From a virus (taxonomy: Duplodnaviria > Heunggongvirae > Uroviricota > Caudoviricetes), in the IMG/VR virus record IMGVR_UViG_2778261500_000001: a stretch of 23,709 nucleotides of DNA; one strand, written 5' to 3'. Positions within the stretch are counted from its first letter, which is position 1, and each line of letters begins with the position of its first letter. The notes below the pieces were generated by a model, which saw only the letters and a list, made by a program, of their open reading frames with translations, ran no database searches and was not told the DNA's origin. This document shows positions 7,455 to 23,709 of the stretch, piece after piece. The position numbers and the translations under genes are program-made.

Positions 7455-8513
7455 TTACGCTCCGGTTTCTGCTGCTGCGGCGCTGAAGTCGCCAATCTGG
7501 ATGTTTTCCACCAGTGCGGCGCAGCGGTAGTCCTCAACCACATAGGCTTCGTTAACGGATTCAAAGTTTTCAATCCGGTCACGTTTCGGGTTGTCGATAA
7601 CTGAGCGGCGGCGGGTGTCTTCCTGCCAGTAGATGGACAGGTTATCCAGACGGGTGATCAGCAGTGCATTCGGCGGGAAGAACGGCGCACGCACGGCCTG
7701 CAGGCCACCCATGCGTTTCTGACTGATGATCATATCGGCAGCCAGTTTTTCACTGTTTTCCTGCTCTTTGTTGACCAGCGGGAAATACTTGTCAGACAGC
7801 AGTTCACGACCGCAAATCACCACCAGATCGTCATCGTCCTGGTAGACCACATCGATAAGCTCATTGACGGCATCCATCACCACGGCGTCCAGGTTGGCAT
7901 ATTCGCCACCTTTCCCGACTTTCACCGCACCCGGTGTGGTTTCACCGCCCGTGGTGGTGCTGCCCATGACGTGATCCGGTGCATCTTCACGGATTTTCTG
8001 CAGCCAGCCTTTGTTCACATCCTGCAGCAGCGGGTTTTCGCTACGGCTGGAGGTTTTCGCACGCTTCACGCCGTTAAAGCCGATCATGATGCGGTCCAGA
8101 GCCTGACGTTTCACGATGGCGTCACGGATGCGCACCTGGAAATCCTGAAACTTCGCCCACAGGTCCAGCTTCGCGTAGGTCAGCACCGTGTCAAAGTTGG
8201 TCTGCTCGCATTTATATTCCACATCGACCATCAGCGTCGGATCGACAGGTTCACGCTCTTTCGCGGTGGTGTCAGTGGTTCCGGCAATGGTGCTGCCAAC
8301 TCCCAGCCCCAGCAGCTGACCGGACTGCTCAGTCACTGGCGTGACGTTAATCAGCGTCAGGAAAGCGGCGGACTGCTGGATCTGGTCTTCCAGCGTCTGC
8401 TGCACAGACGGCTCCACGGTGAACTTGCTGGACAGTTCTTCAACTGCCACACCGTTCAGACGCGCCAGCTGCTGCAGGTAAGCGTTAAAAGCAAAGCGGG
8501 TATTCTTCTTCAT
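7455..8513 (-). CDS. N: Major capsid protein N
   Basis: 352 aa; long colinear similarity to P2 gpN from memory (FNAYL..., KFTVEPSVQQTL, KGGEYANLDAVVMDA, NKEQENSEKLAAD, VVEDY). Confidence 0.95.
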   Translation of the reverse strand: MKKNTRFAFNAYLQQLARLNGVAVEELSSKFTVEPSVQQTLEDQIQQSAAFLTLINVTPVTEQSGQLLGLGVGSTIAGTTDTTAKEREPVDPTLMVDVEYKCEQTNFDTVLTYAKLDLWAKFQDFQVRIRDAIVKRQALDRIMIGFNGVKRAKTSSRSENPLLQDVNKGWLQKIREDAPDHVMGSTTTGGETTPGAVKVGKGGEYANLDAVVMDAVNELIDVVYQDDDDLVVICGRELLSDKYFPLVNKEQENSEKLAADMIISQKRMGGLQAVRAPFFPPNALLITRLDNLSIYWQEDTRRRSVIDNPKRDRIENFESVNEAYVVEDYRCAALVENIQIGDFSAAAAETGA

Positions 8514-8529
8514 CGGGTTTTGTGCTCCA

Positions 8530-9363
8530 TCAGCAATTGGTCAGAGTGTCAGCGGGGGCGTTACCGCCTGTTGCACGCTGGCGGTAGTCCTGGCGACTGT
8601 CTTCATGACTCAGCTTGTCCACCAGTTCGTTAAAGGCGGTTTGCTGTGCCTGCAGGGCAGTCTCCAGCTCAGACAGGCGTTCTTCCTGCTCAGACAGGGA
8701 TTTTTCGGTGCGTGCGCTCAGGTTCTGCTGCTCAGTGGCGACCAGCTCCACGGCCTTATGCACATCAGAGAACCGGGCGTCATCGGACTGCTCTTTTTTG
8801 GTAAACAGCGCCGTGACGCGGGCAAACAGGGACGGTTTGTCGTCCTGGATTTCTTCCAGTTCGATCACCGTTTCCTCTGCAGCGGTAAAGAGATTGGCAG
8901 GATTCTGCTTGCGGTTTGCCAGCGGGTTATGGGCTGCACTGGCGCTGAATGTCAGCATTTCCGTACCCAGACTGGCAGGGTCATCAGTGGCAGCCAGGCC
9001 GACCAGATAGGCTTTGCCCGTATCAGCGAACTTCGGGCTGACTTCCATAGAGGTGAATAATTTCTGGCCTTTTTTCACCAGTTCCACCAGGGACTCCGTT
9101 GGCTCAACGTCGGCATACAGCGCCATCTTGCCTGCCAGCGGACCTTCCGTGATTTCTTCAGCAAACAGCGCCGTCACCTTGCCGTAGCGGTTAAAGGTGC
9201 TGTCCGGCAGATAAGACTTGATGTGCTCAAGGTTAATCAGCGCGGTATACACCGCCGGGTTGTAGCTGGCTGCCATCTGTTCCAGCCATTCACGCTGGAT
9301 TTCGCGTCCGTCGGTGGTGGCACCTTCCACCCCGATGCGAAAACGCTTTGCTTTCACTGTCAT
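8530..9363 (-). CDS. O: Capsid scaffolding protein O
   Basis: 277 aa acidic coiled-coil-rich ORF immediately upstream of N and divergent from P, as in P2. Confidence 0.85.
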   Translation of the reverse strand: MTVKAKRFRIGVEGATTDGREIQREWLEQMAASYNPAVYTALINLEHIKSYLPDSTFNRYGKVTALFAEEITEGPLAGKMALYADVEPTESLVELVKKGQKLFTSMEVSPKFADTGKAYLVGLAATDDPASLGTEMLTFSASAAHNPLANRKQNPANLFTAAEETVIELEEIQDDKPSLFARVTALFTKKEQSDDARFSDVHKAVELVATEQQNLSARTEKSLSEQEERLSELETALQAQQTAFNELVDKLSHEDSRQDYRQRATGGNAPADTLTNC

Positions 9364-9505: not shown

Positions 9506-11272
9506 ATGAACACCACACTGACACCCGCAGATCTCGATCCCCGTCGGCAGGCCATGCTGCTGTACTTTCAGGGATACCGCGTAGCCCGCATTGCTGAAAT
9601 GCTGGGCGAGAAAGTTGCAACCGTTCACAGCTGGAAAAAACGCGACAAGTGGGGTGACTATGGGCCGCTGGATCAGATGCAGCTCACCACCGCCGCACGC
9701 TACTGCCAGCTCATTATGAAGGAGCACAAAGAAGGGAAAGATTTCAAAGAAATTGACCTGCTGGCGCGCCAGTCGGAGCGCCACGCGCGGATCGGCAAGT
9801 TTAACAATGGCGGCAACGAAGCCGACTTAAACCCTAACGTCGCCAACCGCAACAAAGGCCCGCGCCGTCAGCCGGAAAAGAATGTTTTCACCGATGAACA
9901 GATAGAGAAACTGGAAGAAATCTTCCATTCCTCCATGTTCAACTACCAGCGCCACTGGTGGGAAGCCGGAAAAACCAACCGCATCCGCAACCTGCTGAAG
10001 TCACGCCAGATCGGCGCGACCTTTTACTTTGCCCGTGAAGCCCTGATTGACGCCCTGCTTACCGGACGTAACCAGATTTTCCTTTCTGCCAGTAAGGCAC
10101 AGGCTCACGTCTTTAAGCAGTACATCATCGACTTCGCCAAAGAAGTCGAGGTGGAGCTGAAAGGCGATCCGATGGTGCTTCCTAACGGGGCCACGCTTTA
10201 CTTCCTCGGCACCAATGCCCGCACGGCGCAGAGTTACCACGGCAACCTGTATCTGGATGAATATTTCTGGATACCGAAATTCCAGGAGTTGCGCAAAGTG
10301 GCTTCCGGTATGGCTATTCACAAGAAATGGCGACAAACCTATTTTTCCACGCCATCCAGCCTGACCCACAGTGCTTATCCGTTCTGGTCCGGTGCGCTGT
10401 TCAACCGTGGACGCAACAAAGCTGACAAGGTGGACATCGACCTGTCCCACAGCAATCTGGCCCCCGGCCTACTGTGCGCAGACGGGCAATACCGCCAGAT
10501 AGTCACCGTGGAAGATGCGGTGCGCGGCGGCTGTAACCTGTTCGACCTCGACCAGCTGCGCATGGAGTACAGCCCGGACGAATACCAGAACCTGCTGATG
10601 TGCGAGTTCGTGGACGATCTCGCGTCCGTGTTCCCGCTCAGCGAACTGCAGGCGTGCATGGTGGACAGCTGGGAAGTCTGGACCGACTTTCATGCACTGG
10701 CCCTGCGCCCGTTTGGCTGGCGCGAAGTGTGGATCGGTTATGACCCGGCAAAAGGTACGCAGAACGGCGACAGTGCCGGATGCGTGGTGGTGGCTCCGCC
10801 AGCCGTGCCGGGTGGTAAGTTCCGCATTCTTGAGCGTCACCAGTGGCGCGGGATGGACTTCCGCGCCCAGGCTGACGCCATCAAAAAACTGACCGAACAG
10901 TATAACGTGACCTATATCGGTATCGACTCGACCGGCGTCGGTCACGGGGTTTACGAGAACGTGAAAGCGTTTTTTCCTGCCGTCAGGGAGTTTGTCTATA
11001 ACCCCAACGTTAAAAACGCCCTGGTACTCAAGGCCTACGACATTATCAGCCACCGCCGTCTGGAGTTTGACGCCGGGCACACCGACATTGCGCAGTCATT
11101 TATGGCAATCCGTCGCGCTACCACTGCCAGTGGCAACCGCCCGACCTATGAAGCCAGCCGCAGCGAAGAAGCCAGCCATGCCGATCTGGCCTGGGCAACA
11201 ATGCACGCACTGTTTAACGAACCGCTGCAGGGCGAGTCCGCCAATACCAGCAATATTGTGGAGATTTTTTGA
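9506..11272 (+). CDS. P: Terminase large (ATPase) subunit P
   Basis: 588 aa, P2 gpP size and position; divergent from O and followed by Q with a 4-nt overlap. Confidence 0.9.
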   Translation: MNTTLTPADLDPRRQAMLLYFQGYRVARIAEMLGEKVATVHSWKKRDKWGDYGPLDQMQLTTAARYCQLIMKEHKEGKDFKEIDLLARQSERHARIGKFNNGGNEADLNPNVANRNKGPRRQPEKNVFTDEQIEKLEEIFHSSMFNYQRHWWEAGKTNRIRNLLKSRQIGATFYFAREALIDALLTGRNQIFLSASKAQAHVFKQYIIDFAKEVEVELKGDPMVLPNGATLYFLGTNARTAQSYHGNLYLDEYFWIPKFQELRKVASGMAIHKKWRQTYFSTPSSLTHSAYPFWSGALFNRGRNKADKVDIDLSHSNLAPGLLCADGQYRQIVTVEDAVRGGCNLFDLDQLRMEYSPDEYQNLLMCEFVDDLASVFPLSELQACMVDSWEVWTDFHALALRPFGWREVWIGYDPAKGTQNGDSAGCVVVAPPAVPGGKFRILERHQWRGMDFRAQADAIKKLTEQYNVTYIGIDSTGVGHGVYENVKAFFPAVREFVYNPNVKNALVLKAYDIISHRRLEFDAGHTDIAQSFMAIRRATTASGNRPTYEASRSEEASHADLAWATMHALFNEPLQGESANTSNIVEIF

Positions 11273-12309
11273 TGGGAAAGAGTAAGAAGAACCGCGCTGC
11301 GTCGACGAAACAGATCCAGCATAAAAGCCAGACTTCAGCCGAAGCATTCAGCTTCGGTGATCCCGTTCCTGTTCTGGACCGCCGCGAACTGCTGGACTAT
11401 GTGGAATGCGTACAGATGGATCGTTGGTACGAGCCGCCTGTGAGTTTCGACGGACTGGCGCGAACCTTCCGCGCCGCCGTGCATCACAGCTCACCGATTG
11501 CAGTGAAGTGCAACATTCTGACCAGCACCTACATCCCTCACCCGCTGCTCAGCCAGCAGGCTTTTTCGCGTTTTGTACAGGACTATCTGGTTTTTGGTAA
11601 CGCCTACCTGGAGAAACGCACGAACCGCTTCGGTGAAGTTATCGCCCTTGAGCCTGCACTGGCAAAATACACCCGACGCGGGTTAGACCTTGATACCTAC
11701 TGGTTTGTGCAATACGGCATGACTACGCAGCCGTATCAGTTCACGAAAGGCAACATTTTTCATCTGATGGAACCGGACATCAACCAGGAGATCTACGGCC
11801 TGCCTGGTTATCTTTCTGCCATTCCGTCAGCTCTGCTCAACGAGTCCGCCACGCTGTTCCGCCGCAAGTATTACATTAACGGCAGTCATGCAGGCTTCAT
11901 CATGTACATGACCGATGCAGCGCAGAACCAGGAGGATGTGAACAACCTCCGCAATGCGATGAAAAGCGCCAAAGGTCCTGGTAACTTCCGTAACCTGTTT
12001 ATGTACTCGCCTAACGGTAAAAAGGACGGGCTTCAGATTATCCCGTTGTCAGAAGTGGCGGCGAAGGATGAGTTCCTGAATATCAAGAACGTGAGCCGGG
12101 ACGACATGATGGCGGCGCATCGTGTGCCGCCACAAATGATGGGGATAATGCCTAATAATGTCGGGGGGTTTGGGGATGTGGAGAAGGCCAGCCGTGTATT
12201 CGTCCGAAATGAGCTAATGCCACTACAAAAGCGATTACAGGAGATGAATGATTGGCTTGGCAAGGAGGCGATACAGTTTAATACCTACTCGCTAGATATA
12301 GTCCCATAA
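11269..12309 (+). CDS. Q: Portal protein Q
   Basis: 346 aa ORF downstream of P, P2 gpQ size and position. Confidence 0.9.
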   Translation: MMGKSKKNRAASTKQIQHKSQTSAEAFSFGDPVPVLDRRELLDYVECVQMDRWYEPPVSFDGLARTFRAAVHHSSPIAVKCNILTSTYIPHPLLSQQAFSRFVQDYLVFGNAYLEKRTNRFGEVIALEPALAKYTRRGLDLDTYWFVQYGMTTQPYQFTKGNIFHLMEPDINQEIYGLPGYLSAIPSALLNESATLFRRKYYINGSHAGFIMYMTDAAQNQEDVNNLRNAMKSAKGPGNFRNLFMYSPNGKKDGLQIIPLSEVAAKDEFLNIKNVSRDDMMAAHRVPPQMMGIMPNNVGGFGDVEKASRVFVRNELMPLQKRLQEMNDWLGKEAIQFNTYSLDIVP

Positions 12310-12313
12310 TAAG

Positions 12314-12337
12314 AAAAGCCACCGTTTGGTGGCTTTT
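12314..12337. terminator. Bidirectional intrinsic terminator between convergent Q and the accessory operon
   Basis: Perfect 10-bp stem AAAAGCCACC / GGTGGCTTTT with a 4-nt loop, flanked by a T-run on both strands; lies between the Q stop (12309) and the stop of the 246-aa gene (12344). Confidence 0.65.
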
Positions 12338-12343
12338 CTTCAT

Positions 12344-13084
12344 TTACTCAATAGGTTCAAACTCATCCTGAGGAATCAGCGTCGATTGACAGGCTTGGCT
12401 TAGTACTCCTGATAATTTACATAATAACCGATAGTTATGAGGAGCATCATCGCTAATCTTTTCGACCGTTAAAGTGATTGATTTTGGATCATCCAATAAC
12501 ATCTTCTTGATATCATTACTTAAATACCTAGGGCAGTAACCAACGATTTCAGCTGGTTTATCTGCACGAACGACAACAGCATCCCCATCGTATTCATTTT
12601 GAAGATCCAAGCAAAGACGCAAAATTTGCCCCGGTTTCAATTCAGATACACGAGCATTAGCTAAGCTATTTAAGTAACCAAGTCCATGTAAGAAGAAAAA
12701 ATGCTCAAAGTTACCATCAGAATCAACATCAATTTTTTTGAAAATCTGCAGCTGATCAGTGCTTCGTAAGCCTCCCGAGCGAGCAAGAATATCGATAGGA
12801 TTTACCTTATCTTCTTCAAATCCAAGCCATTTAATGAAACTCGGATACTCTGGACGTCTCGGTGATAAAAGGCGATTTTTAAAAAGAGGAAACAATTCTT
12901 CCGAAACATAAGTTTCACGAACATCACTCATGCCGCTAAACTTTGTAAATTTAGTAGATTTAAGAGCACCTTTGGTATACCTGAAAACATACCCCGATTT
13001 GCGCTCTTGCAAGTTACCAACAACATGCCAGTCTCTGGTATCTGGTGCCTGCCATGCGACGTAAACGGAGTTTGTATTAGTCAT
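12344..13084 (-). CDS. Partner protein with HipA-N-terminal-like domain fused to a HIRAN-like domain
   Basis: 246 aa. N-terminal part (VYVAWQ...VVGNL...YVFRY; LFPLFKNRLLSPRRPE; IDILARSGGLRS) resembles the HipA N-terminal subdomain as I recall it. C-terminal part (LKPGQILRLCLDLQNEYDGDAVVVRADKPAEIVGYCPRYLSNDI) fits the HIRAN pattern. Start overlaps the stop of the upstream kinase gene. AT-rich. Confidence 0.6.
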   Translation of the reverse strand: MTNTNSVYVAWQAPDTRDWHVVGNLQERKSGYVFRYTKGALKSTKFTKFSGMSDVRETYVSEELFPLFKNRLLSPRRPEYPSFIKWLGFEEDKVNPIDILARSGGLRSTDQLQIFKKIDVDSDGNFEHFFFLHGLGYLNSLANARVSELKPGQILRLCLDLQNEYDGDAVVVRADKPAEIVGYCPRYLSNDIKKMLLDDPKSITLTVEKISDDAPHNYRLLCKLSGVLSQACQSTLIPQDEFEPIE

Positions 13085-13995
13085 TCTAGTAACCTTCTGC
13101 GATTTTCCATTACCATTAACGTTGCAAATCTACGTGCACTGTCGGATATACACGATGAAGGCACTTGGTTAAACACATCTGTAATGGAATCTTCTGTTAA
13201 AACGCTCAACTTACCTAACCAATGGTCGCGAGCGGCAACTCTCCCTTCAACTGCATGTTGAAATGCTTCAACGGTCAGCAAGGGCTTTTTATCAGTTTTT
13301 GCTTTGAATAGCTCAGAGCGAGCTTTTCTTACAAAACATGGGATTTGTCGATTTTTATCTTTAGTATTAAGCCGTTCGTTACGCTCATCATCTAACATCT
13401 CCCTTCCTAAACTAGCGGCATGATCGTATGTTGGACACAAAAACTGCTCACCAGTTTCATTGTTAAGCATGATCGCCCAATTTTCATGATGGCGATCTTG
13501 ATTACTCACAAGTGCATCGAGCATCAAAAATCCACAAAATACATCTGCTGCATTTAGCCCGGTTAGATCATATACACTCGGAGGAGGCTTGATAGATTCC
13601 CTATCTAAACAACCCAATACCCTTGTGACAGTGTGTTCTCTGACCCTTACCGGCTTTTCCCCGGCTTGTAAAGGCCCTGGATAATCGAATGTCGAACTGT
13701 GAAGCACTTCATTTCCCATTACCATCCGGAAACCAGATGGAATGATATTCTGAGTCACCACACCGAATCGACCATTGTATCGCGCCAAATCATAGCTAGC
13801 ATGTGGAATGTTAAGCAAATGACATAACTCAGCAGCACACTTTTCAGACCAATGCTCGCCAGTACCTGGCCTAGAGTACTTAAACAACTGCAAATTTACA
13901 GTGTCATCGGAGAAATAGAACCAAAACTTCTCTTTGGTTCCTAACTGTTCAAGATCGTTAGCTACGGGGCTAAGCTCTACCAATTGGTATGGCAT
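13081..13995 (-). CDS. HipA-like Ser/Thr protein kinase, core kinase domain only
   Basis: 304 aa. Motifs seen: FLMLDALVSNQDRHHENWAIM (compare HipA catalytic loop with Asp) and LCPTYDHAASLG (compare HipA PAYD Mg-binding Asp), plus a glycine-lysine motif LGTKEKF near the N-terminus. Putative catalytic Asp167 and Asp191 by my count. No HipA N-terminal domain in this ORF. Confidence 0.75.
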   Translation of the reverse strand: MPYQLVELSPVANDLEQLGTKEKFWFYFSDDTVNLQLFKYSRPGTGEHWSEKCAAELCHLLNIPHASYDLARYNGRFGVVTQNIIPSGFRMVMGNEVLHSSTFDYPGPLQAGEKPVRVREHTVTRVLGCLDRESIKPPPSVYDLTGLNAADVFCGFLMLDALVSNQDRHHENWAIMLNNETGEQFLCPTYDHAASLGREMLDDERNERLNTKDKNRQIPCFVRKARSELFKAKTDKKPLLTVEAFQHAVEGRVAARDHWLGKLSVLTEDSITDVFNQVPSSCISDSARRFATLMVMENRRRLLE

Positions 13996-14147
13996 CTGAC
14001 ATCCCTGTTTAGCGGATTATGAATAAGTTAGGTTCCATTTTATCCAAACATTGTCAAATACTCTAAGATTTATTAGATGATAGAGCGATACTGTATGCAT
14101 GTCCAGCAATCAAATCAATATATAACTCTTATATGACTTAGCGCGCG

Positions 14148-14166
14148 CTCGTATCCCCGCCACGCC
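14148..14166 (-). other. Candidate cos cohesive-end sequence
   Basis: Minus-strand reading GGCGTGGCGGGGATACGAG resembles the P2/186 19-nt cohesive ends as I remember them (GGCGAGGCGGGGAAAGCAC / GGCGTGGCGGGGAAAGCAT). Orientation and position relative to Q fit; exact ends unverified. Confidence 0.45.
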
Positions 14167-14210
14167 TGCCCGCTTTATGTAGTGGTTTTCATGCAGGTGC
14201 ATGATCTACG

Positions 14211-14235
14211 CAAAAGCCCGCCAGTTCTGGCGGGC
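14211..14235 (-). terminator. Hairpin gcccgccag-ttc-tggcgggc followed by a T-run on the minus strand
   Basis: Perfect 9-bp GC-rich inverted repeat seen directly; on the minus strand it is followed by TTTTG. Could be a terminator or part of the cos-flanking structure. Confidence 0.4.
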
Positions 14236-14508
14236 CTTAGCGAAAACGATCCTCAAACGATCATGCAATCTCATGCAGCATAGACATGCACAGACGAGTA
14301 AAGCGAATCGGACCTTACGCAAGGTGAACTCCTCAGCGGGCATAATCAGTATGTCGGAAGATCTCTAAAAATAAATAATTCGGTTAACAGGTATGCTTAC
14401 AAAAGCATATATTTGATTAAAAATCATGTAAGGGGGAGGATCTCAAACTGAATCGCCACGGGTTTTACAAATTTCGATAGTCTCTCTAACGTTTCGGCTG
14501 AGGTCAAA

Positions 14509-14934
14509 ATGAAAAGCTTTTACGTATTAATTTTAATTCTGGTTGCAAGCTTTGTTAGCGTCCCAGTTCAGGCGGTAACAGCTAAAAACTATGAGAAAGG
14601 AACTAAAGCTCAACAGAAATCAATATCTTACCTTTCATGTGCATTCTATGGCAGTAGCACACAATTAGATCCTAGCTACACGGAGCAAGTACCTACAGCC
14701 GATATCAAGATATTACAGAAAGCAGCTTACCACGCTTACAACGATGCGCTCTCATACTTTGGCTATGAGGAACCAGATCACGAACAACGCATAATTGATT
14801 ATGCTGAATTTGTGGCGTCGCAAGAAGCTGTGTTATGGGATAAGCCGGGAATGAATGGAAAGCAGGTAACACTAATTGCTCGTTCTCTCTACAATGAGAG
14901 TAACTGTAACTTGTTACTGGACTCAATTAAGTAG
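14509..14934 (+). CDS. Small secreted protein of unknown function (accessory/moron gene)
   Basis: 141 aa with a classic Sec signal peptide (MKSFYVLILILVASFVSVPVQA, AxA-type cleavage site); GAGG Shine-Dalgarno 8 nt upstream; AT-rich; only plus-strand gene in this island. Confidence 0.5.
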   Translation: MKSFYVLILILVASFVSVPVQAVTAKNYEKGTKAQQKSISYLSCAFYGSSTQLDPSYTEQVPTADIKILQKAAYHAYNDALSYFGYEEPDHEQRIIDYAEFVASQEAVLWDKPGMNGKQVTLIARSLYNESNCNLLLDSIK

Positions 14935-15093
14935 GAAAAAGATGGTATTTTGCCCGTAGTTTCAACCTTAATCTCCGAACCTGTCGCAGAACGGGCGTTC
15001 ACTCATCAAATAAACGCCACACCTAACGCCTCACTGTACTCGTTGTTCAACCTTGCTGACGCCAGAACCAAGTTCAGACGCCAGCAACTTTTC

Positions 15094-15327
15094 TTAATGC
15101 AGCCAGCTGTCGTCTTCCCACACCTTCTGCATAATCTTCATCACTTGTTTTCTTTCTTCGTCCAGTTGCAGTCCGGTCAGTTCCACACCGTTAGAGCTAC
15201 CTTTGCGGATGCGAATTACCATTTTGGGATACAGGGGGCGCAGATTGCGGTAAAGCTCGGATTCAAGGGCGTCCAGGGTAGACTGGCTAATCTTCTGCTC
15301 TTTATCGATCATTATTTCAATGCGCAT
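15094..15327 (-). CDS. DinI-family protein (SOS-associated, Tum/DinI-like)
   Basis: ORF 15094..15399; from internal start MRIEIMIDKEQ... the product is about 78 aa and resembles E. coli DinI end-to-end as recalled, including the C-terminal acidic W motif (WEDDSW). Confidence 0.7.
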   Translation of the reverse strand: MRIEIMIDKEQKISQSTLDALESELYRNLRPLYPKMVIRIRKGSSNGVELTGLQLDEERKQVMKIMQKVWEDDSWLH

Positions 15328-15337
15328 AAAGGTCACC

Positions 15338-15526
15338 TCAGCTGATGACATCCATTGAGCGGTTGTATTCGTGGGTTCTGATTTTTGCCATGAGTTCATC
15401 AGTCAATTCAGAAACCCACTGCAGAGCCAGCCCCTTCTCTTCATCACTACACTCACTAGCCGCTACAAGCTTAAGAAAAAAATCAATGCGCTGGAGCTTC
15501 AAAGACTCCAAAAAATAGTCCTGCAT
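15338..15526 (-). CDS. Small hypothetical protein immediately downstream of a LexA box (possible Tum-like antirepressor component)
   Basis: 62 aa ORF with strong SD (GGAGG) and a LexA box about 45 bp upstream; functional call is positional only. Confidence 0.35.
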   Translation of the reverse strand: MQDYFLESLKLQRIDFFLKLVAASECSDEEKGLALQWVSELTDELMAKIRTHEYNRSMDVIS

Positions 15527-15568
15527 CTTTCCTCCTATGACACCAAAGCAATACTGTATATATAACCA

Positions 15569-15584
15569 CTGTTTATATTTACAG
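15569..15584 (-). promoter_or_regulatory. LexA box (CTGT-N8-ACAG) overlapping an AT-rich promoter region
   Basis: cACTGTTTATATTTACAGta seen directly; perfect CTGT/ACAG half-sites with an AT-rich 8-bp spacer; TATA-rich -10-like sequences adjacent; upstream of the 62-aa/DinI-like genes. Confidence 0.7.
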
Positions 15585-15678
15585 TATATAATAATCTTAC
15601 TGATGTAAAACGTTTTTTTACGTTCATCAGCCTGAAATGCCTGGTATTATTAAGAGCACGAATTGTTAACCCGCGTAA

Positions 15679-18051
15679 TTAATACAGGTTCCGCCACTTA
15701 TCATCTTCCTGCAAACGCTGGTTCCGATAGAAGATACGCAGGCCTGCTCCTGACGGAATACTGCCGCCGCGAAGGAGTAAATCGACCTCTTTCTCGCTGC
15801 CATCAAATCCTCTGGACTTCAGTTCATAGACGAGCTGCTGTCGCTGATGGTCTGTAATTCGCTGTTTGTAGTCTTTACGCCGTTTCGGTTTCACCAGGCG
15901 TAACCTTGCAGCCAGTTCCCGGCGCTCTTTTTTGCTCATACTGTGCAGGTATTCGTGCAACTCCTTGTCATCCATGCGGGTAATGTCCGTTCTGGTATCC
16001 CCATCAGCTGATTTGTCTTTCCCTTGTTGGTTCAAATTTTCAGCAAGGGGACAGTTATTGCCACGAGTCCAAGGGGCGCAAGCGCCCTGGTCGGCTGCCG
16101 CCTCCTGAACATCAACGGCCTTACGAACCATTTTCCACTTCACGGCATGAGTGCAGATCTTGCCCTCTGCAATAGGTGACCAGATGCCATAAATACGAAT
16201 GCCGTGATCGCCATAGGCGGTCGGCTCTTCGTTGATTTCATAAGCGGTTCTGATGAGGTGATATTTGCGGGGAACCAGTACGCCGCCCTGCTTCATGATG
16301 TAGGTGGCAAAACAACCAGCATCAGCAGCAGCCAGGATGGCATCAAGGCGCGGGTTATCCAGTACCGGCGCACCTGCTTTTTTGTCCCCCTGTTGCCTTG
16401 CCGCCTGACCAGCCAGCAATCGCAGTTCACGGTAAGCCTGACGCCCCGGAATGCCAAAGAAGCGGAATTGCTGAACACGATGCAGAGACGCCCAGGCATT
16501 AACGTATTCAGCATTATCACGCAGGGATTTCCCCGTTTCCTTGCTGATCTCGCCAGCCAGACCACGCCCGTCAATGTTCTTACTGATGTATTTCGCGATG
16601 TAGCTTGTTGGCGTACCTTTGCGCGGGTTAATCAACTCAGACTTAAAGCGCGGCCCAGTGTTATTGCCCAGTTCCTCGCGGTCTTCACGGATGGCAAACT
16701 TACGCAGTAATGCAGTGATGGCGCGGCGGTCTTTTTTGCGCATAAAACACAACAGGTGCCAGTGAACTGTACCGTCATGATGCGGCTCAGCCACCCGCAC
16801 GCCATACCACCGCAATCCGGCTTTGTGCATCGCCTTACGAAATGCAGCAAACATGCCGACCAGATAATCACTGCTTTGTCTTACCGTCGCATTTGTCCAA
16901 GTTGGGTTGGGCCTGCCATTATTTAGCGTGGAATGGAAACGTGACGGACAGGTGATGGTGTAGAAAACGGCGCAGTCACCGCGCATTTCCGCGATAAGCT
17001 CCAGGCCTTTAACACAGGCCATCATCTCATTGCGGCGATGCGCAGGGTTGCTGCTGCTGGCGTTTACCACATCCTCCATGTCCAGCGTGTCGCCGTCTTC
17101 GTTCACCAGTTCATGAGAACGAAAAAACTCCAGCGACTTACGGCGCTGCTCACGTTTATGCATCACGGCTTCATAGCTGACATAGGGAGATGCTTTTTTG
17201 CTGACCAGGCAGACAGCACGCAACTGCTCTTCCCGCCATTCGCAACGCATCTTCCATAATTTCCGGTACCACCAGTCAGCGCACAACATACGCGCCAGCG
17301 AACCCGGAATGAGTTCATAGGGCACGGGTTTACGGCGGTTTCTTTTCCGGCGGAGTTGCTCAAACGCAGGCGGGATGACATCCAGACGCAGGGTTTCCGC
17401 TGCCACCTTTTCCCATGTCTTGCGGATTTCTTCTGGCTTAACGTCATCGGTGACATACAAATCGCCACAAGCTGCATCAAGGCACATGCTCATATGCGCA
17501 GCTACCAGGGTGGACAGGCGTTTCACCTGATCCTGACTCATTTCAGGCAGGATCAGCAGGCCGTCCAGCCCTTCATGGCTTGCCATAAAGCGAAAAGAAG
17601 TGGATAGCTGACAGTCGCGTACATGCTCCAGCCGTTCCAGACATGGCTTAATCGTCTCACGCAAATAGCGGGAATAAGCCTTTGGCCTGCCCAGGCTGCT
17701 GAAGTATTCAATACGTTGCATCAGTGGCTTGCTGATATGGGAAGGCTGGGCATTAACGTCCGCCAGAATGACCATATCTGGATTAAAACGCTGCTGCTCA
17801 TGCGCCAGCTTTGCCCGACTAATGAGCTTATCCTGCTCCATTTCGCGCTGGACAGGATCACGGGATTCATTAAAGAAATAACGCTCCCAGACCTGATCAC
17901 TCAGTGCCTCGCGGCGCAGCTGTTCCTGCTCGTTATCGGCAGCGTACAGAGCGATCAGGTTTGAAAGCGCAGAAACTGAAGATTGCTCTTCCGTCTCTAC
18001 GTAAGGATTGATTGCTTTTTTCTCAGCATTCCAGGAATAGCTGTAGTTCAT
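15679..18051 (-). CDS. A: Replication initiation protein A (rolling-circle endonuclease)
   Basis: ORF 15679..18102 (807 aa); probable start at MNYSYSW (18051), overlapping the upstream stop as TAATG. Contains a two-tyrosine motif [12 protein letters not shown] consistent with P2 gpA active-site tyrosines. Confidence 0.85.
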
Positions 18052-18881
18052 TACGCAATCTCCAGTTCGAGCTGTGAAGGCTGCAAACCATTCGACAGCC
18101 AATCAGAAACTGAAGGTGGGCGAACAGCTTCAATTGCACCTTTTAAAATTGCGCAACGGTTTTTCAGAATGACAGCTTTCAGCTCCTTTTCCGTCAGATT
18201 GCGCGAATACTCAGCCTCCTGAATAGCCCGCGTCAGCTCAGGATATTTGCTATTAAATTTGGGGACATTGCAGGCAAGATTTGTACTGTCGGCAGTCGCC
18301 AGTGGGTAATTTCCCAACACACGACCGTCAAGCATGCGCAAACCATGAACAGCTGTTTTGAAATTGTGTCGGCAATAAATTGCTTCAAAAGCGTCCTGCA
18401 TACGACGATGCCAGTGCGCAGTTCTGATAGCCGCATATTCACCAGACGATCCAAAGCAGACACGAGGCCATTCACGACATAGCTCGATAAGCCGATCGAT
18501 TGACTCGTGCAGATGCCAGACGGGAGTTGCCTTCCCGTAGAACATTTTCGGAACTTCGTTTATCAGGGCATCATTGTCACGTTCACCTCCGTCCACAACA
18601 TCAGGAATGACAAAAAAAGCGACCTTAGGATGGTGGTAATAGTTCAGGAGCCATTTATAAAAATCACTCCAGTTAATTTTTAGCCCACGCACCCATGCAG
18701 AAAATGCGCCGTTATCAATGCCGACGACCTGAGCGTGCTGAATGGACGCCGCAATCTGATCTGGTCGTACATAGGAGACGAAAGCGCCAGCTCCGCTCAC
18801 CGCAATACGATGAACGTCGCCAGCACTTCCCCAGACAGGCGTCCCATGGAAATGATGAATTCCGTGGTGCATTTCTTTCAC
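18051..18881 (-). CDS. Hypothetical protein, possibly TGT/DpdA-like TIM-barrel (uncertain)
   Basis: 276 aa; GTG start overlaps the Dam stop (GTGA), stop overlaps the A start. Motifs [32 protein letters not shown] are weakly reminiscent of tRNA-guanine transglycosylase-like enzymes; unverified. Confidence 0.45.
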
Positions 18882-22227: not shown

Positions 22228-23361
22228 ATGAATATTACTCGATTAAAACTGAAAAATTGGAAAAACTTCAGGAATATTGATGTTCCTCTTCATGACCGTG
22301 TTTACATCATAGGGCCAAATGCTGTAGGTAAATCAAACTTCCTTGATGTCTTTCGCTTTATGAGTGATATTTGTAGAGATGGTGGTGGTTTACAAAAAGC
22401 GGTCAATGATAGAGGTGGCATAACAAAACTCCGTTGTCTTCAAGCGAGAAATGATACCGAAGTAGGTATAACCATATATTTTGAGGAAGACGATAACGAG
22501 TGGATTTATGAACTTATTTTCAAGGCATCTGGCCGAGGGAAACAGTTAATTCACGTCACTAGTGAAAATGTATATAAAAATGGTGAGCATATATTGAGCC
22601 GCCCCAATGCTCATGATCATGCTGATGCTGTTCAGTTGACTCAAACACATCTTGAGCAAATTTTAGCAAATCAAAGTTTTAGAGTGATTTCAGATTTCTT
22701 CACATCTGTTACATACTTGCATATAGTTCCACAGTTGCTCAAATTCGCCAAAGAAATTGGGGTTAATAAAATAGATGATGACCCATTTGGACAAGGGTTT
22801 CTTGACCGATTAGCAAATACTCAAACACGAACCAGAGATGCCTGGCTAAAAAAAATACAAGCAGGGCTATCTATTGCTGTTCCGCAGTTTAAAGAGTTAC
22901 GCTTTGAAAGAGATGAATCAGGGCAACCACACTTAGAAGCAAGGTACGAGCACTGGAGGCCAAATGCTGGATGGCAAAAAGAAGAGCAGTTTTCAGATGG
23001 AACATTACGTTTAATCGGTTTGATGTGGTCACTTCTTGAGAAAAGACAGCTACTTTTAATGGAAGAACCTGAATTATCTTTGAACAGTGAAATTGTGAAA
23101 TTTATACCTGAAATCATTGAAAACACGCTTAAAGGTGCTCGAAATCAAAAGCAAATCATCATTAGCACTCACAGTCCATCGTTGCTAAGTAATAATATCG
23201 ATGGCAATAACATTATTCTATTTACAGCATCTGAAAACGGTACTACAGCGAGAACACCTACAGATGATGAATTGGATGCAATGAGAGTCGGTTTCTCTGC
23301 TGCTGAAATCATGTTGCCTCATACGACGCCTGCCAATATAAGTAAAATTGCAGAGATCTAG
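22228..23361 (+). CDS. ABC-type (AAA_21/OLD-like) ATPase, putative defence-system component
   Basis: 377 aa. Walker A GPNAVGKSN, signature-like FSDGTLR, Walker B-like LLLMEEPE, H-loop ISTHSP, all seen directly. ATG is 1 nt after the cI stop with an AAGAGG SD. Confidence 0.8.
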   Translation: MNITRLKLKNWKNFRNIDVPLHDRVYIIGPNAVGKSNFLDVFRFMSDICRDGGGLQKAVNDRGGITKLRCLQARNDTEVGITIYFEEDDNEWIYELIFKASGRGKQLIHVTSENVYKNGEHILSRPNAHDHADAVQLTQTHLEQILANQSFRVISDFFTSVTYLHIVPQLLKFAKEIGVNKIDDDPFGQGFLDRLANTQTRTRDAWLKKIQAGLSIAVPQFKELRFERDESGQPHLEARYEHWRPNAGWQKEEQFSDGTLRLIGLMWSLLEKRQLLLMEEPELSLNSEIVKFIPEIIENTLKGARNQKQIIISTHSPSLLSNNIDGNNIILFTASENGTTARTPTDDELDAMRVGFSAAEIMLPHTTPANISKIAEI

Positions 23362-23364
23362 TAC

Positions 23365-23709
23365 ATGAAAATTTCAATTGCAACGGAAGATATCTTAACA
23401 GAGGAGGCCATGGTTAAAATCATTGCCTCTAATGGCCATTTTGAAATAAAAAACAAACTAGGCAAACAGGGATGCGGTTATCTAACGAGCAACCTTGAAA
23501 AATTCAACAACTTAGCAGCACTTCATCATGTATTGGTTGTACTTGATTTAGACCTTAAAGAAAATGCAGTTACTTATCGCAGTGAAATCGAAAATAAATT
23601 AAGAAATAAACACGAAAGACTTAAGATAATAATTCCGATCAGAGAGGTTGAAAGTTGGATTTTGGCCGATAGAGGGGGGTTGAGTGATTACTTTAAAATA
23701 TCTAAAGAT
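23365..23709 (+). CDS. TOPRIM-like partner protein (5' part; gene runs off the window end)
   Basis: At least 115 aa, starting 3 nt after the ATPase stop. Acidic motifs ATEDIL, VVLDLD and EVESWILAD resemble the conserved Glu / DxD pattern of TOPRIM-type nucleases. Not in the ORF track because no stop lies in the window; translated by hand. Confidence 0.55.
   Translation, partial: MKISIATEDILTEEAMVKIIASNGHFEIKNKLGKQGCGYLTSNLEKFNNLAALHHVLVVLDLDLKENAVTYRSEIENKLRNKHERLKIIIPIREVESWILADRGGLSDYFKISKD

Follow-up and report, generated by a model that had tools for sequence, protein, structure and literature searches.

The locus analyzed here is closest to the hipIN modules that Gerdes, Baerentsen & Brodersen described in 2021 (mBio, PMC8262856), which consist of the kinase HipI and the putative antitoxin HipN and belong to clade XI of the Hip kinases. 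In that work, HipI proteins are 279-321 aa long and lack N-subdomain-1, the Gly-rich loop of the short Hip kinases lies near the N-terminus, and one of the HipI subclades contains both Proteobacteria and Cyanobacteria. Moreover, HipL proteins were described, single chains that combine a kinase with HipS-like and HIRAN domains. The authors hypothesized that HIRAN senses phage DNA ends, whereupon the kinase is activated and the infection aborts. The paper reports no experiments and mentions neither the P2 cos-Q location nor LexA/SOS control.

The module has also been listed elsewhere. It is the PADLOC candidate PDC-M03. A 'HIRAN-kinase' appears as an unknown system in Table S6 of Rousset et al. 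2022, and the exact proteins of the present locus, WP_001146828 and WP_000185757, stand in the P2-hotspot table of the same study. DefensePredictor 2026 gives WP_000185757.1 as a predicted defense gene. These three entries are catalogue or prediction, not experimental validation.

Three further kinase systems are relevant for comparison. In HipBA of E. coli K-12, which is chromosomal and linked to persistence, HipA is a single 440-aa chain with N-subdomains, targets GltX, and is neutralized by the HTH repressor HipB, which is encoded upstream. HipBST of E. coli O127:H6 and Legionella pneumophila comprises three genes in the order hipB-hipS-hipT; HipT targets TrpS, and the HTH protein HipB autoregulates the operon. 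To inhibit HipT, HipS places its Glu63 and Trp65 next to the Gly-rich loop, and the HipBST authors view HipS as an allosteric modulator (PMC10627512). For DS-6/HipAD, a HipA-family kinase system, phage defense was shown, and this was lost on mutation of a catalytic residue (PMC13092281).

Comparison of the locus with known systems

The DNA analyzed, hereafter the window, is a viral stretch of 23,709 nucleotides. The architecture of its two-gene cassette is not new, as Gerdes et al. 2021 described it as hipIN and PADLOC lists it as PDC-M03. The short kinase, the N-terminal Gly-rich loop, and the downstream partner with HipS-like and HIRAN domains are all shared with hipIN, and no architectural difference was found. 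The adjacent, overlapping genes matched PDC-M03A (HipI, E=1.4e-121) and PDC-M03B (HipN, E=3.4e-93), both near full-length, and the Vibrio prophage 'HIRAN-kinase' of Rousset 2022 has the same gene order and Pfam calls. The locus is not new as a discovery because published tables already contain the family, its candidate-defense status, and the exact protein pair. Accordingly, the novelty implied in a preliminary description of this DNA was not upheld. As to whether the system had already been characterized, it has been described and catalogued, and an experimental characterization of any hipIN member was not found in the literature, although Brenes & Laub 2025 might contain one. What goes beyond the literature consulted is the strict pairing of kinase and partner, the recurrent cos-hipI-hipN-Q order, and a clade-wide LexA-box-like site.

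The locus follows the split HipA logic of HipBST, where a HipT kinase core is met at its active site by a separate HipS; in predicted structures, the HipI fold matches HipT and the N-domain fold of HipN matches HipS. However, there are two genes instead of three, no HTH protein is encoded, and the HipS-like part is fused to HIRAN. The kinase gene comes first, so that the gene order is opposite to that of HipBST, as the preliminary description had stated. Furthermore, hipIN in the window is apparently LexA-regulated, unlike the HipB-autoregulated HipBST. HipI belongs to the same kinase superfamily as HipA, but is a 304-aa core without a HipB. DS-6/HipAD resembles hipIN in having two genes, a HipA-family kinase, and a place in E. 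coli mobile DNA. However, its partner has DUF3037/DUF1829, neither of which was found in HipN, where Pfam gave only HIRAN and a weak Couple_hipA match.

Genomic context of the cassette

The element that hosts the cassette is a 186/P2-like prophage, which encodes a 186-type CI repressor. The main features of the region are as follows.

11269..12309, plus strand: portal gene Q, convergent with hipN (ORF; annotated as portal protein in a near-identical E. coli prophage)
12243..14139: variable cargo slot from Q to cos, filled here by the hipIN cassette; homology to related phages ends at 12242 and restarts at 14140
12311..12340: hairpin with a perfect 13-bp stem separating the convergent Q and hipN (folding, about -21 kcal/mol)
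12344..13084, minus strand: hipN, 246-aa partner with HipS-like N-terminal domain and C-terminal HIRAN (ORF; PADLOC PDC-M03B; AF2/Foldseek)
13081..13084, minus strand: 4-bp ATGA stop/start overlap of hipI and hipN, translational coupling (sequence)
13081..13995, minus strand: hipI, 304-aa HipA-fold Ser/Thr kinase core without HipA N-subdomain-1 (ORF; PADLOC PDC-M03A; AF2/Foldseek)
14002..14006, minus strand: Shine-Dalgarno-like AGGGA 5' of the hipI ATG (A-GGA core invariant in a 7-lineage upstream alignment)
14140..14291: conserved cos island, 93-97% identical to Klebsiella phage ST11-VIM1phi8.4 and Escherichia phage vB_EcoM-813R9
14148-14166, minus strand: 19-nt cohesive-end homologue, matching P2 cosL
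15679-18102: gpA (replication gene A)

The preliminary description had reported a low-GC two-gene operon, with gene 2 translationally coupled to gene 1, in an accessory hotspot between Q and cos, and each of these points was borne out. Both ORFs were present on the minus strand in the ORF list and are joined by the ATGA overlap, and the GC content was 0.38-0.45 over 12000-16000, compared with approximately 0.55-0.60 in the flanking phage genes. Relatives with 93-97% identity in the 150-bp cos island carry other cargo in the same slot, namely AIPR or Hypoth_Ymh cargo (AIPR/Abi type in sister phages). The cos-proximal region from gpA to gpQ is a documented defense hotspot of P2-like phages (Rousset et al. 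2022, PMC9122126), and the window likewise has variable cargo between gpA and Q, beside cos.

The cos core, GGCGTGGCGGGGATACGAG|CGCGCGCT, lies at 14166-14140 on the minus strand and is homologous to P2 cosL. Spotted first by eye and then by comparison with related phages, it belongs to the 186/other type; the exact P2 cos 19-mer had no match in the window with up to 3 mismatches allowed. Between cos and hipI, the ORF list contained no reading frame of 40 aa or more. The order cos-hipI-hipN-Q was repeated in 38 viral contigs of diverged P2-like phages, and this fixed place just inside the left cohesive end might reflect a link between hipIN and the phage's own DNA ends. At the other end of the cassette, the hairpin between Q and hipN had folding z-scores of -5.5 for one strand and -6.5 for the other. 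It is placed as tQ is in P2 and is likely a bidirectional terminator; it was detected by folding and was not reported by the terminator scan.

HipI kinase

The codons of the conserved kinase motifs lie at the following positions.

13918..13944, minus strand: L18-GTKEKFWF-26, putative Gly-rich (ATP-binding) loop, invariant in 33 homologues
13477..13503, minus strand: catalytic motif N165-QDRHHEN-W173, aligned with HipA 307-315 (catalytic D309, N314) and with CtkA
13420..13428, minus strand: Y190-D191-H192, Mg2+-binding Asp motif, D191 aligned with HipA D332

As judged from its AF2 model (pLDDT 85), HipI is a HipA-fold kinase with an apparently intact catalytic center. In Foldseek, the model matched CtkA (E=1.6e-10, TM 0.68/0.75), E. 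coli and Shewanella HipA, and Legionella HipT, and the matches were limited to the HipA core. This agrees with the preliminary description, which had given gene 1 as lacking the HipA N-terminal domain. The HipA catalytic motifs and the Asp167/Asp191 numbering that it proposed are also real: N165-Q-D167-R-H-H-E-N172-W and Y190-D191-H192 were invariant in 33 homologues, and D167, N172, and D191 aligned with HipA D309, N314, and D332 in hhalign. The L18-GTKEKFWF-26 segment probably forms the Gly-rich ATP-binding loop, considering its conservation and its position near the N-terminus. CtkA, the closest structural relative, is not a toxin of a toxin-antitoxin system, which weighs against reading HipI as the toxin of an abortive-infection module.

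Sequence comparisons gave lower scores. The Pfam HipA_C match (E=3.8e-4, 20.6 bits) fell under the 30.5-bit cut-off, and the match to CtkA among PDB sequences was marginal, with E=0.32 for the single sequence and 4.8e-4 with a profile. Alignment of the hipIN family profiles to E. coli HipA by hhalign gave the right registers with weak scores (E=0.05-0.08), as the alignments were poorly diverse (Neff ~2.2). Since HipA_C and Couple_hipA were under the Pfam cut-offs and hhalign was weak, the folds were assigned from predicted structures.

HipN partner

HipN comprises two domains, in accordance with the HipA-N-like and HIRAN-like parts that the preliminary description had seen in gene 2.

12740..13084, minus strand: HipS-like or HipA N-subdomain-1-like domain, HipN residues ~1-115 (Couple_hipA, Foldseek, hhalign)
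12401..12706, minus strand: HIRAN domain, HipN residues 127-228 (Pfam, Foldseek)

Pfam HIRAN (PF08797) matched HipN with E=1.1e-13 and 51.3 bits against a 24.7-bit cut-off, and Couple_hipA matched under its cut-off (E=0.018). Thus, the profiles named in the preliminary description gave a mixed result, with HIRAN above and HipA_C and Couple_hipA below the cut-offs, and the predicted folds settle all three. In the AF2 model of HipN (pLDDT 89), the N-terminal half matched HipS of HipBST (7AB3_E, target TM 0.71, rmsd 3.3) and also the HipA N-terminus, while the C-terminal half matched the HLTF HIRAN with DNA (4S0N) and the lp_0118 HIRAN, with a target TM of 0.62-0.78 against 4S0N, 4XZG, and 3K2Y. 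Among PDB sequences, lp_0118 gave a marginal E=0.6. No HTH domain was found by Pfam in HipI or HipN.

In the N-terminal domain, hhalign placed HipN 20-72 on HipA 11-65 with a weak score. The FxN motif of HipN aligned with HipA 58-65 and is followed by the invariant N70-R..R77-P-E79-Y80..F83..W86; comparison with HipS, made at the level of the fold, assigned no HipN residue to Trp65. The HIRAN domain has the same fold as that of HLTF/Rad5, and both have the NxYD...A and G-x-x-x-R/K motifs that grip the DNA 3' end. HipN N163, Y165, D166, and R186 aligned with HLTF N91, Y93, D94, and K113 (hhalign, E=7e-4), and N163, D166, and R186 were invariant in 30 HipN homologues. On this sequence evidence, the HIRAN domain of HipN appears to retain the residues for DNA 3'-end binding. 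However, the HLTF/Rad5 HIRAN is fused to an SNF2 translocase and RING for fork reversal, whereas that of HipN is fused to a HipS-like, kinase-regulating domain.

The HipN family comprised 1,621 clusters at 50% identity. Among the best 150 HipN-profile matches in 1.84 billion representatives, nearly all were stand-alone proteins of 240-270 aa, and no HipL-type fusions were evident. The few longer matches had a C-terminal extension (a weak pPIWI_RE_REase at most), no added domain, or were likely a secretin-HIRAN chimera.

Pairing and distribution of the two genes

The gene hipN lay directly 3' of the kinase gene in 79 of 80 genomic loci, the exception being truncated by a contig end, and in all 58 viral loci. 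Kinase and partner overlapped or were separated by at most 15 nt in 73 of 79 related loci, 34 of which had the identical ATGA. The kinase gene was disrupted in 4 genomic loci and hipN in none, which weakly supports a toxic kinase. Among 147 ORFs from 37 loci, the neighborhood scan found no conserved third gene and no clear defense-island enrichment, these counts having no baseline. Outside enterobacteria, the nearest neighbors were mostly ordinary genes, with sporadic defense genes. The 80 loci spanned Proteobacteria and Cyanobacteria, which fits the fourth HipI subclade of Gerdes 2021.

That the two genes are coupled strictly 1:1, with the kinase gene in front, would also suit a stoichiometric complex, in which HipN is an obligatory kinase subunit instead of an inhibitor. 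HipN would contribute in trans the N-subdomain-1 that HipI lacks, and HIRAN would direct the active kinase to DNA ends. Its substrates there would be phage or host proteins on the DNA, for instance factors of replication, recombination, or packaging, and the outcome would be direct interference and no release of a toxin. In addition to HipS, the N-domain of HipN matches the HipA N-terminus, which is part of the active enzyme in HipA. The allosteric view of HipS held by the HipBST authors points the same way, as do the single-chain HipL proteins of Gerdes 2021, for which a labile-antitoxin mechanism is impossible because their domains lie in one chain. However, HipS neutralizes the kinase in both characterized split systems, E. 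coli and Legionella HipBST (PMC10627512), and the disruption counts, small as the numbers are, show a toxin/antidote asymmetry. We therefore consider such a holoenzyme improbable.

The toxin-antitoxin-like architecture, the location on mobile elements, and the patchy occurrence (21 of 5426 complete E. coli genomes) would also agree with a plain addiction module, which would stabilize the prophage or cassette through post-segregational killing and in which HIRAN would have no sensing role. However, this leaves the conserved DNA-end-binding residues of HIRAN, the fused HipL forms, and the LexA operator unexplained, and the kinase-first order without an HTH autorepressor is atypical of classical type II modules. 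Plain addiction is accordingly regarded as very unlikely.

Predicted promoter and LexA-box-like site

Two further elements lie upstream of hipI.

14077..14105, minus strand: predicted sigma-70 promoter TGGACA, 17-nt spacer, TATCAT (consensus scan, 10/12 matches)
14089..14108, minus strand: LexA (SOS) box-like operator TGCTGGACATGCATACAGTA over the -35 hexamer (15/20 to consensus)

The predicted promoter is inside the cassette, 72-110 nt 5' of the hipI ATG. The operator-like site has the form CTG-N10-CAG and scored 15/20 here and 13-18/20 in relatives; the known recA, lexA, and sulA boxes gave 14-17 under the same scoring. Only 2 such sites were present in the window, against a shuffle mean of 0.02 at this score, and the second (17/20) lies upstream of DinI-like genes. 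The site was kept at -100 to -137 in 51 of 51 loci with a kinase at least 66% identical, and such sites were approximately 41-fold denser there than elsewhere in the loci. In contrast, it was present in none of the loci with a kinase less than 66% identical, including distant gammaproteobacterial members such as Vibrio. Judging from this conservation, hipIN of the enterobacterial clade appears to be under LexA/SOS control. As the site is restricted to one clade and the architecture is kept elsewhere, SOS control looks like a regulatory add-on and not the core function.

The possibility that the site is a cos packaging signal was also considered and rejected, since it is inside the variable cassette and its spacing to hipI is kept in loci without cos or Q (L125-L132).

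The preliminary description had missed this operator-like site, which opens a further explanation. A LexA-controlled promoter suits a role in DNA damage or prophage induction equally well as defense, and hipIN may be a DNA-damage-responsive growth-arrest or prophage-induction accessory of the SOS regulon, not an anti-phage system. It would be expressed on LexA cleavage together with the Tum/DinI-like antirepressor operon of the 186-type prophage. HIRAN would read 3' ends at damaged or regressed forks, as in HLTF, and the kinase would slow translation or growth until repair (tolerance, persistence) or tune host physiology during induction. The LexA-like box over the promoter in all 51 loci of the enterobacterial clade, the box before the DinI-like genes, and the 186-type CI repressor agree with this, and tisB and dinJ-yafQ are examples of toxin modules under SOS control. 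Moreover, HIRAN in eukaryotes works on stalled forks, and HipA is the classic kinase of persistence (PMC8262856). However, distant gammaproteobacterial members keep the two-gene architecture without the box, the slot is a known defense hotspot with Abi-type cargo in sister phages, and the machine-learning tool DefensePredictor calls the protein defensive. A purely damage-responsive role was thus judged unlikely, although less so than the holoenzyme or addiction.

Proposed mechanism

We give somewhat better than even chances to an abortive-infection module in which DNA ends free HipI from HipN, with SOS-gated expression in the enterobacterial clade. For this module we infer a toxic kinase, its inhibition by HipN, a DNA-end trigger, LexA binding, and an anti-phage outcome. 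HipI would most likely arrest growth by phosphorylating an essential host protein, perhaps in the translation apparatus by analogy with HipA and HipT. Translational coupling would ensure that HipN is produced in step with HipI, and its HipS-like domain would provide the missing HipA N-subdomain-1 in trans and most likely keep the Gly-rich loop of HipI inactive, as HipS does with HipT. DNA ends would most likely alter the HipN-HipI complex and release the kinase; they could stem from foreign phage DNA during injection or replication, or from DNA that is degraded or damaged. The released HipI would halt the cell, and the infection would be aborted. The defense reading draws support from the hotspot location, the AIPR/Abi cargo of relatives, the DefensePredictor call, and the kinase-dependent phage defense of DS-6/HipAD.

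In the enterobacterial clade, the LexA box over the promoter would hold the operon largely silent until SOS. Activation would then need two signals linked to DNA damage: cleavage of LexA, so that the operon is expressed, and DNA ends, so that the kinase is freed. Tentatively, hipIN of enterobacterial prophages may be a DNA-damage-gated 'two-key' switch, in which LexA cleavage licenses expression and a HipA-type kinase is released once HIRAN detects free DNA 3' ends. The DNA-end-sensing abortive-infection model that the preliminary description had inferred is plausible as such, and Gerdes et al. had put it forward for hipIN in 2021.

Implications

The founding members of the persistence toxins are HipA-family kinases, and one relative, HipAD, is now shown to be defensive against phage. 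The hipIN module is a widespread sister architecture, the partner of which bears a putative eukaryote-like sensor of DNA 3' ends. As a representative, the copy in the window is handy, being prophage-borne, compatible with E. coli, and equipped with a compact promoter of its own. Considering the predicted LexA control, standard plasmid-based phage assays in uninduced cells may overlook hipIN activity.

If HIRAN indeed gates the kinase, this would be a new sensor-effector logic in bacterial immunity, tied to fork sensing by HLTF/Rad5. If the two-signal switch holds, no earlier case would be known of a Hip kinase wired to SOS, or of a prokaryotic HIRAN that serves a protein kinase as nucleic-acid pattern sensor. 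The prophage would then tie the SOS response of its host to a decision on translation arrest or on other phospho-signaling.

Genetic organization of hipIN

The two-gene operon that the preliminary description had placed in low-GC DNA was recovered with the same coordinates and a low GC content. The genes for the kinase HipI and its downstream partner HipN (together hipIN) overlap by a 4-bp ATGA stop/start, and their DNA is 38–45% GC, compared with 55–60% in the flanking phage genes.

Features of hipIN and its neighbours
13081-13995, minus strand: hipI, ORF of 304 aa
12344-13084, minus strand: hipN, ORF of 246 aa
12311-12340: 13-bp perfect hairpin between the convergent Q and hipN genes
11269-12309: portal gene Q, neighbour of hipIN on the terminase side
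9506-11272: large terminase gene, on the Q side of hipIN
15094-15399: DinI-like gene, on the other side of hipIN from Q
15679-18102: replication gene A (gpA), beyond the DinI-like gene and followed by CII and a 186-type CI repressor

Transcription of hipIN runs from the cohesive-end site, cos, toward Q. The hairpin (approximately -21 kcal/mol, z-scores of -5.5 and -6.5) marks the end of hipIN and is capable of terminating transcription from either side. Nearly the same operon, with at least 99% identity, was present in 21 out of 5,426 complete genomes of E. coli; the single copy inspected adjoins the portal gene of a P2-like prophage.

A second candidate defence locus, predicted from sequence, occupies 22228-23709 of the same prophage. 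Directly after the CI repressor gene, in low-GC (34–40%) DNA, an AAA_21/AAA_15 ATPase gene (22228-23361) matches PADLOC HEC-01A (E = 5.5e-154) and, more weakly, AriA, AbiLi and Old. It is followed by a partner ORF (23365-23709, MKISIATEDIL...) that runs off the window end.

Assignment of HipI and HipN

Profile searches bore out only part of the proposed domain content: HIRAN in HipN was clear (Pfam E = 1.1e-13, over the cut-off), whereas HipA_C in HipI (E = 3.8e-4, 20.6 bits) and Couple_hipA in HipN (E = 0.018) fell under the Pfam cut-offs. The proposed HipA catalytic motifs were confirmed in an alignment of 33 homologues, where N165-Q-D167-R-H-H-E-N172-W and Y190-D191-H192 of HipI were invariant, as was the N-terminal motif L18-GTKEKFWF-26. 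Residues D167, H169, N172 and D191 pair with HipA D309, H311, N314 and D332 in a profile-to-sequence comparison of weak statistics and expected register.

AlphaFold models built on the homologue alignments were confident for both HipI (pLDDT 85.1, pTM 0.85) and HipN (pLDDT 88.8, pTM 0.84), and they agreed with a kinase that lacks the HipA N-terminal domain and a HipA-N-like/HIRAN partner. The best Foldseek match of HipI was the HipA-like kinase CtkA (E = 1.6e-10, TM 0.68/0.75), followed by E. coli HipA, Shewanella HipA and Legionella HipT. The N-terminal half of HipN matched HipS of E. coli HipBST (7AB3_E, target TM 0.71, rmsd 3.3) and the HipA N-terminus, and its C-terminal half matched the HIRAN domains of HLTF and lp_0118 (target TM 0.62–0.78). 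HipN 20-72 pairs with residues 11-65 of HipA N-subdomain-1 (profile-to-sequence; weak statistics, expected register). HipN N163, Y165, D166, A169, G182 and R186 align (E = 7e-4) with HLTF N91, Y93, D94, A97, G109 and K113, the residues that make up the DNA 3'-end pocket in the HLTF structures; the HLTF sequence was checked against the PDB. Among 30 aligned HipN homologues, N163, D166 and R186 were invariant. With this, all points of the preliminary observation were confirmed.

Clustered at 50% identity, the HipN family has 1,621 representatives, 312 of which reach E ≤ 1e-30, and its top matches are nearly all stand-alone two-domain proteins of 240–270 aa. Two relatives are atypical: P0255 (408 aa) is extended at its C-terminus by ~180 aa that faintly match pPIWI_RE_REase, and P0266 (419 aa), with secretin domains and a HIRAN tail, is probably a chimera created by assembly or gene calling.

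Relation to known systems

Novelty of the pair could not be maintained. The same architecture, a short HipI without N-subdomain-1 and a downstream HipN composed of HipS-like and HIRAN domains, was described as hipIN by Gerdes, Baerentsen & Brodersen 2021 (PMC8262856), and PADLOC carries the pair as candidate PDC-M03. In Rousset et al. 2022, the study that established the cos-proximal region between gpA and gpQ of P2-like phages as a hotspot, the hotspot table includes the identical proteins (WP_001146828 and WP_000185757); the list of cloned systems does not. HipA/HIRAN clusters beside diDNase genes in Actinobacteria were termed predicted defence genes in a 2025 NAR paper, and DefensePredictor (Science 2026) gives WP_000185757.1 the label "predicted novel defense gene"; its validated HipA-family system, DS-6/HipAD, has a DUF3037/DUF1829 partner unlike HipN. 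Gerdes et al. proposed that HIRAN recognises the DNA ends of invading phages, upon which the kinase becomes active and infection is aborted, and the mechanism guessed in the preliminary description coincides with this hypothesis. Their Table 1 gives zero experimentally analysed hipIN members. No experimental test of the family was found in the accessible literature, a scope outside which Brenes & Laub 2025 falls; within it, hipIN is described, catalogued and repeatedly predicted as defence. The pair found here is thus one unexceptional, previously listed representative of a known candidate defence family.

Pairing of hipI and hipN

The pairing was evaluated in 80 reference-genome loci from Proteobacteria, Cyanobacteria, Acidobacteria, Planctomycetes and Clostridia, with kinases 35–89% identical. 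In 79 of the 80, the gene directly following that of the kinase, in the same orientation, encoded a HipN homologue, the single exception being cut by a contig end; the same pair was present in all 58 IMG/VR viral loci. The kinase stop and hipN start overlapped in 57 of the 79 pairs (ATGA in 34), and a further 16 were at most 15 nt apart. Among 147 flanking ORFs, no conserved third gene was found; the neighbours were heterogeneous, with mobile-element or defence genes only occasional.

Translational coupling would supply HipN in stoichiometric amounts, and its HipS-like domain would bind HipI. [quoted passage not shown] Second by weight among the rival explanations, HipN would instead be an obligatory targeting subunit, not an inhibitor. 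In L022, L023, L047 and L060, a frameshift or stop splits the kinase ORF in two (at 1367-2377 in L022, near 8000-8950 otherwise) while the downstream hipN is intact; hipN was disrupted in none. Such an asymmetry would be expected if the kinase were toxic and hipN encoded the antidote, but the numbers are too small for significance and MAG sequencing errors are possible. The rival ranked third by weight is a plain addiction module.

Five cyanobacterial loci (L040, L042, L043, L052 and L066) have a 117–127-nt spacer between kinase stop and hipN start in place of the usual overlap, and L057 has one of 261 nt; the extra sequence could derive from an inserted element or serve as a regulatory region of its own. 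Kinase homologues of 37% identity (H41-H44) occur in ~14-kb Vibrio cyclitrophicus elements deposited as phages (PQ189286 etc.), which by size could be satellites or defence elements.

The cos-Q cargo slot

The proposed insertion between Q and cos held up. On the minus strand, positions 14166-14140 are GGCGTGGCGGGGATACGAG/CGCGCGCT, compared with GGCGAGGCGGGGAAAGCAC/TGCGCGCT for P2 cosL. In P2, the interval from cosL to the stop codon of Q is only ~167 non-coding bases long, tQ terminator included, and the classical tin/old cargo is found across cos. Two phages, Klebsiella phage ST11-VIM1phi8.4 and Escherichia phage vB_EcoM-813R9, served to set the slot limits; homology to them stops at ~12242.

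Features of the slot region
14140-14291: conserved cos island, 150 bp, 93–97% identity to both phages, core identical
14292 to ~15022: second variable slot, on the far side of cos

In both phages, the interval between Q and cos contains other cargo, either an AIPR gene for abortive infection or a Hypoth_Ymh gene; thus, hipIN occupies a genuine cargo slot. Moreover, 38 of the 58 viral loci adjoin a P2-like portal gene, 37 of them with a cos motif 170–290 nt upstream of hipI, even where Q is only 60% and gpA ~32–37% identical to those of the window. The order cos-hipI-hipN-Q is therefore recurrent across diverged Peduoviridae, an arrangement beyond the accessible literature.

The second slot contains a plus-strand ORF (14509-14934, 141 aa) whose product begins with a hydrophobic stretch resembling a signal peptide and matches nothing in Pfam or PADLOC; elsewhere this slot carries SIR2 and an ATPase (E. 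coli GmM062 relative) or a different hypothetical gene (Klebsiella phage). Within the cos island, a 16-nt inverted repeat with a 2-nt loop (CGCAAAAGCCCGCCAG / CTGGCGGGCCTTAGCG, 14209-14242) may form a hairpin of terminator type or belong to the packaging signal.

Predicted LexA-box-like operator

When the upstream regions of seven lineages were aligned, a CTG-N10-CAG element before hipI proved invariant.

LexA-box-like sites, scored against the LexA consensus
14108-14089, minus strand: TGCTGGACATGCATACAGTA, 15/20, upstream of hipI
15567-15586: CACTGTTTATATTTACAGTA, 17/20, upstream of a minus-strand 62-aa ORF (15338-15526) and the DinI-like gene

These are the only two sites in the window, compared with a mean of 0.02 in block shuffles at a score of at least 15. 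Under the same scoring, the E. coli K-12 operators of recA (16), lexA (15/14) and sulA (17) were the sole sites in their regions. The hipI site overlaps the -35 element of the predicted promoter (TGGACA, 17-nt spacer, TATCAT), the only good promoter match. At the place of the second site, 186-type phages have the LexA-controlled tum/antirepressor promoter; together with the 186-type CI, this suggests an SOS-inducible prophage.

A LexA-like site lay at -100 to -137 in 51 of 51 loci with kinases at least 66% identical, in P2 and non-P2 contexts, although many are closely related and the counts are not independent; none of the loci below 66% had one. Site density was 1.4 per kb upstream of hipI and 0.035 per kb elsewhere. 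The box varies between lineages while its flanks diverge, which argues for selection on it. IMG/VR loci without P2 portal or cos (L125-L132; hipIN 66–72% identical) keep the box at -113 to -137; thus, the operator travels with the cassette and not with the P2 backbone. LexA and SOS are both unmentioned in Gerdes et al. 2021 (PMC8262856), and this predicted SOS operator is beyond the accessible literature.

In the enterobacterial clade, LexA would hold the operon low until SOS. The rival of greatest weight takes the same control to indicate an SOS-linked function in DNA damage or prophage induction rather than defence. The best-supported and most likely reading combines a kinase, restraint by HipN, release through HIRAN and LexA control: HipI would be an active HipA-type kinase that arrests growth when unrestrained, and binding of HIRAN to DNA 3' ends would release or re-target it. 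Of these results, the predicted SOS operator and the conservation of the position next to cos are worth carrying forward: together they enable specific, cheap experiments and suggest that assays without SOS induction could miss a hipIN phenotype.
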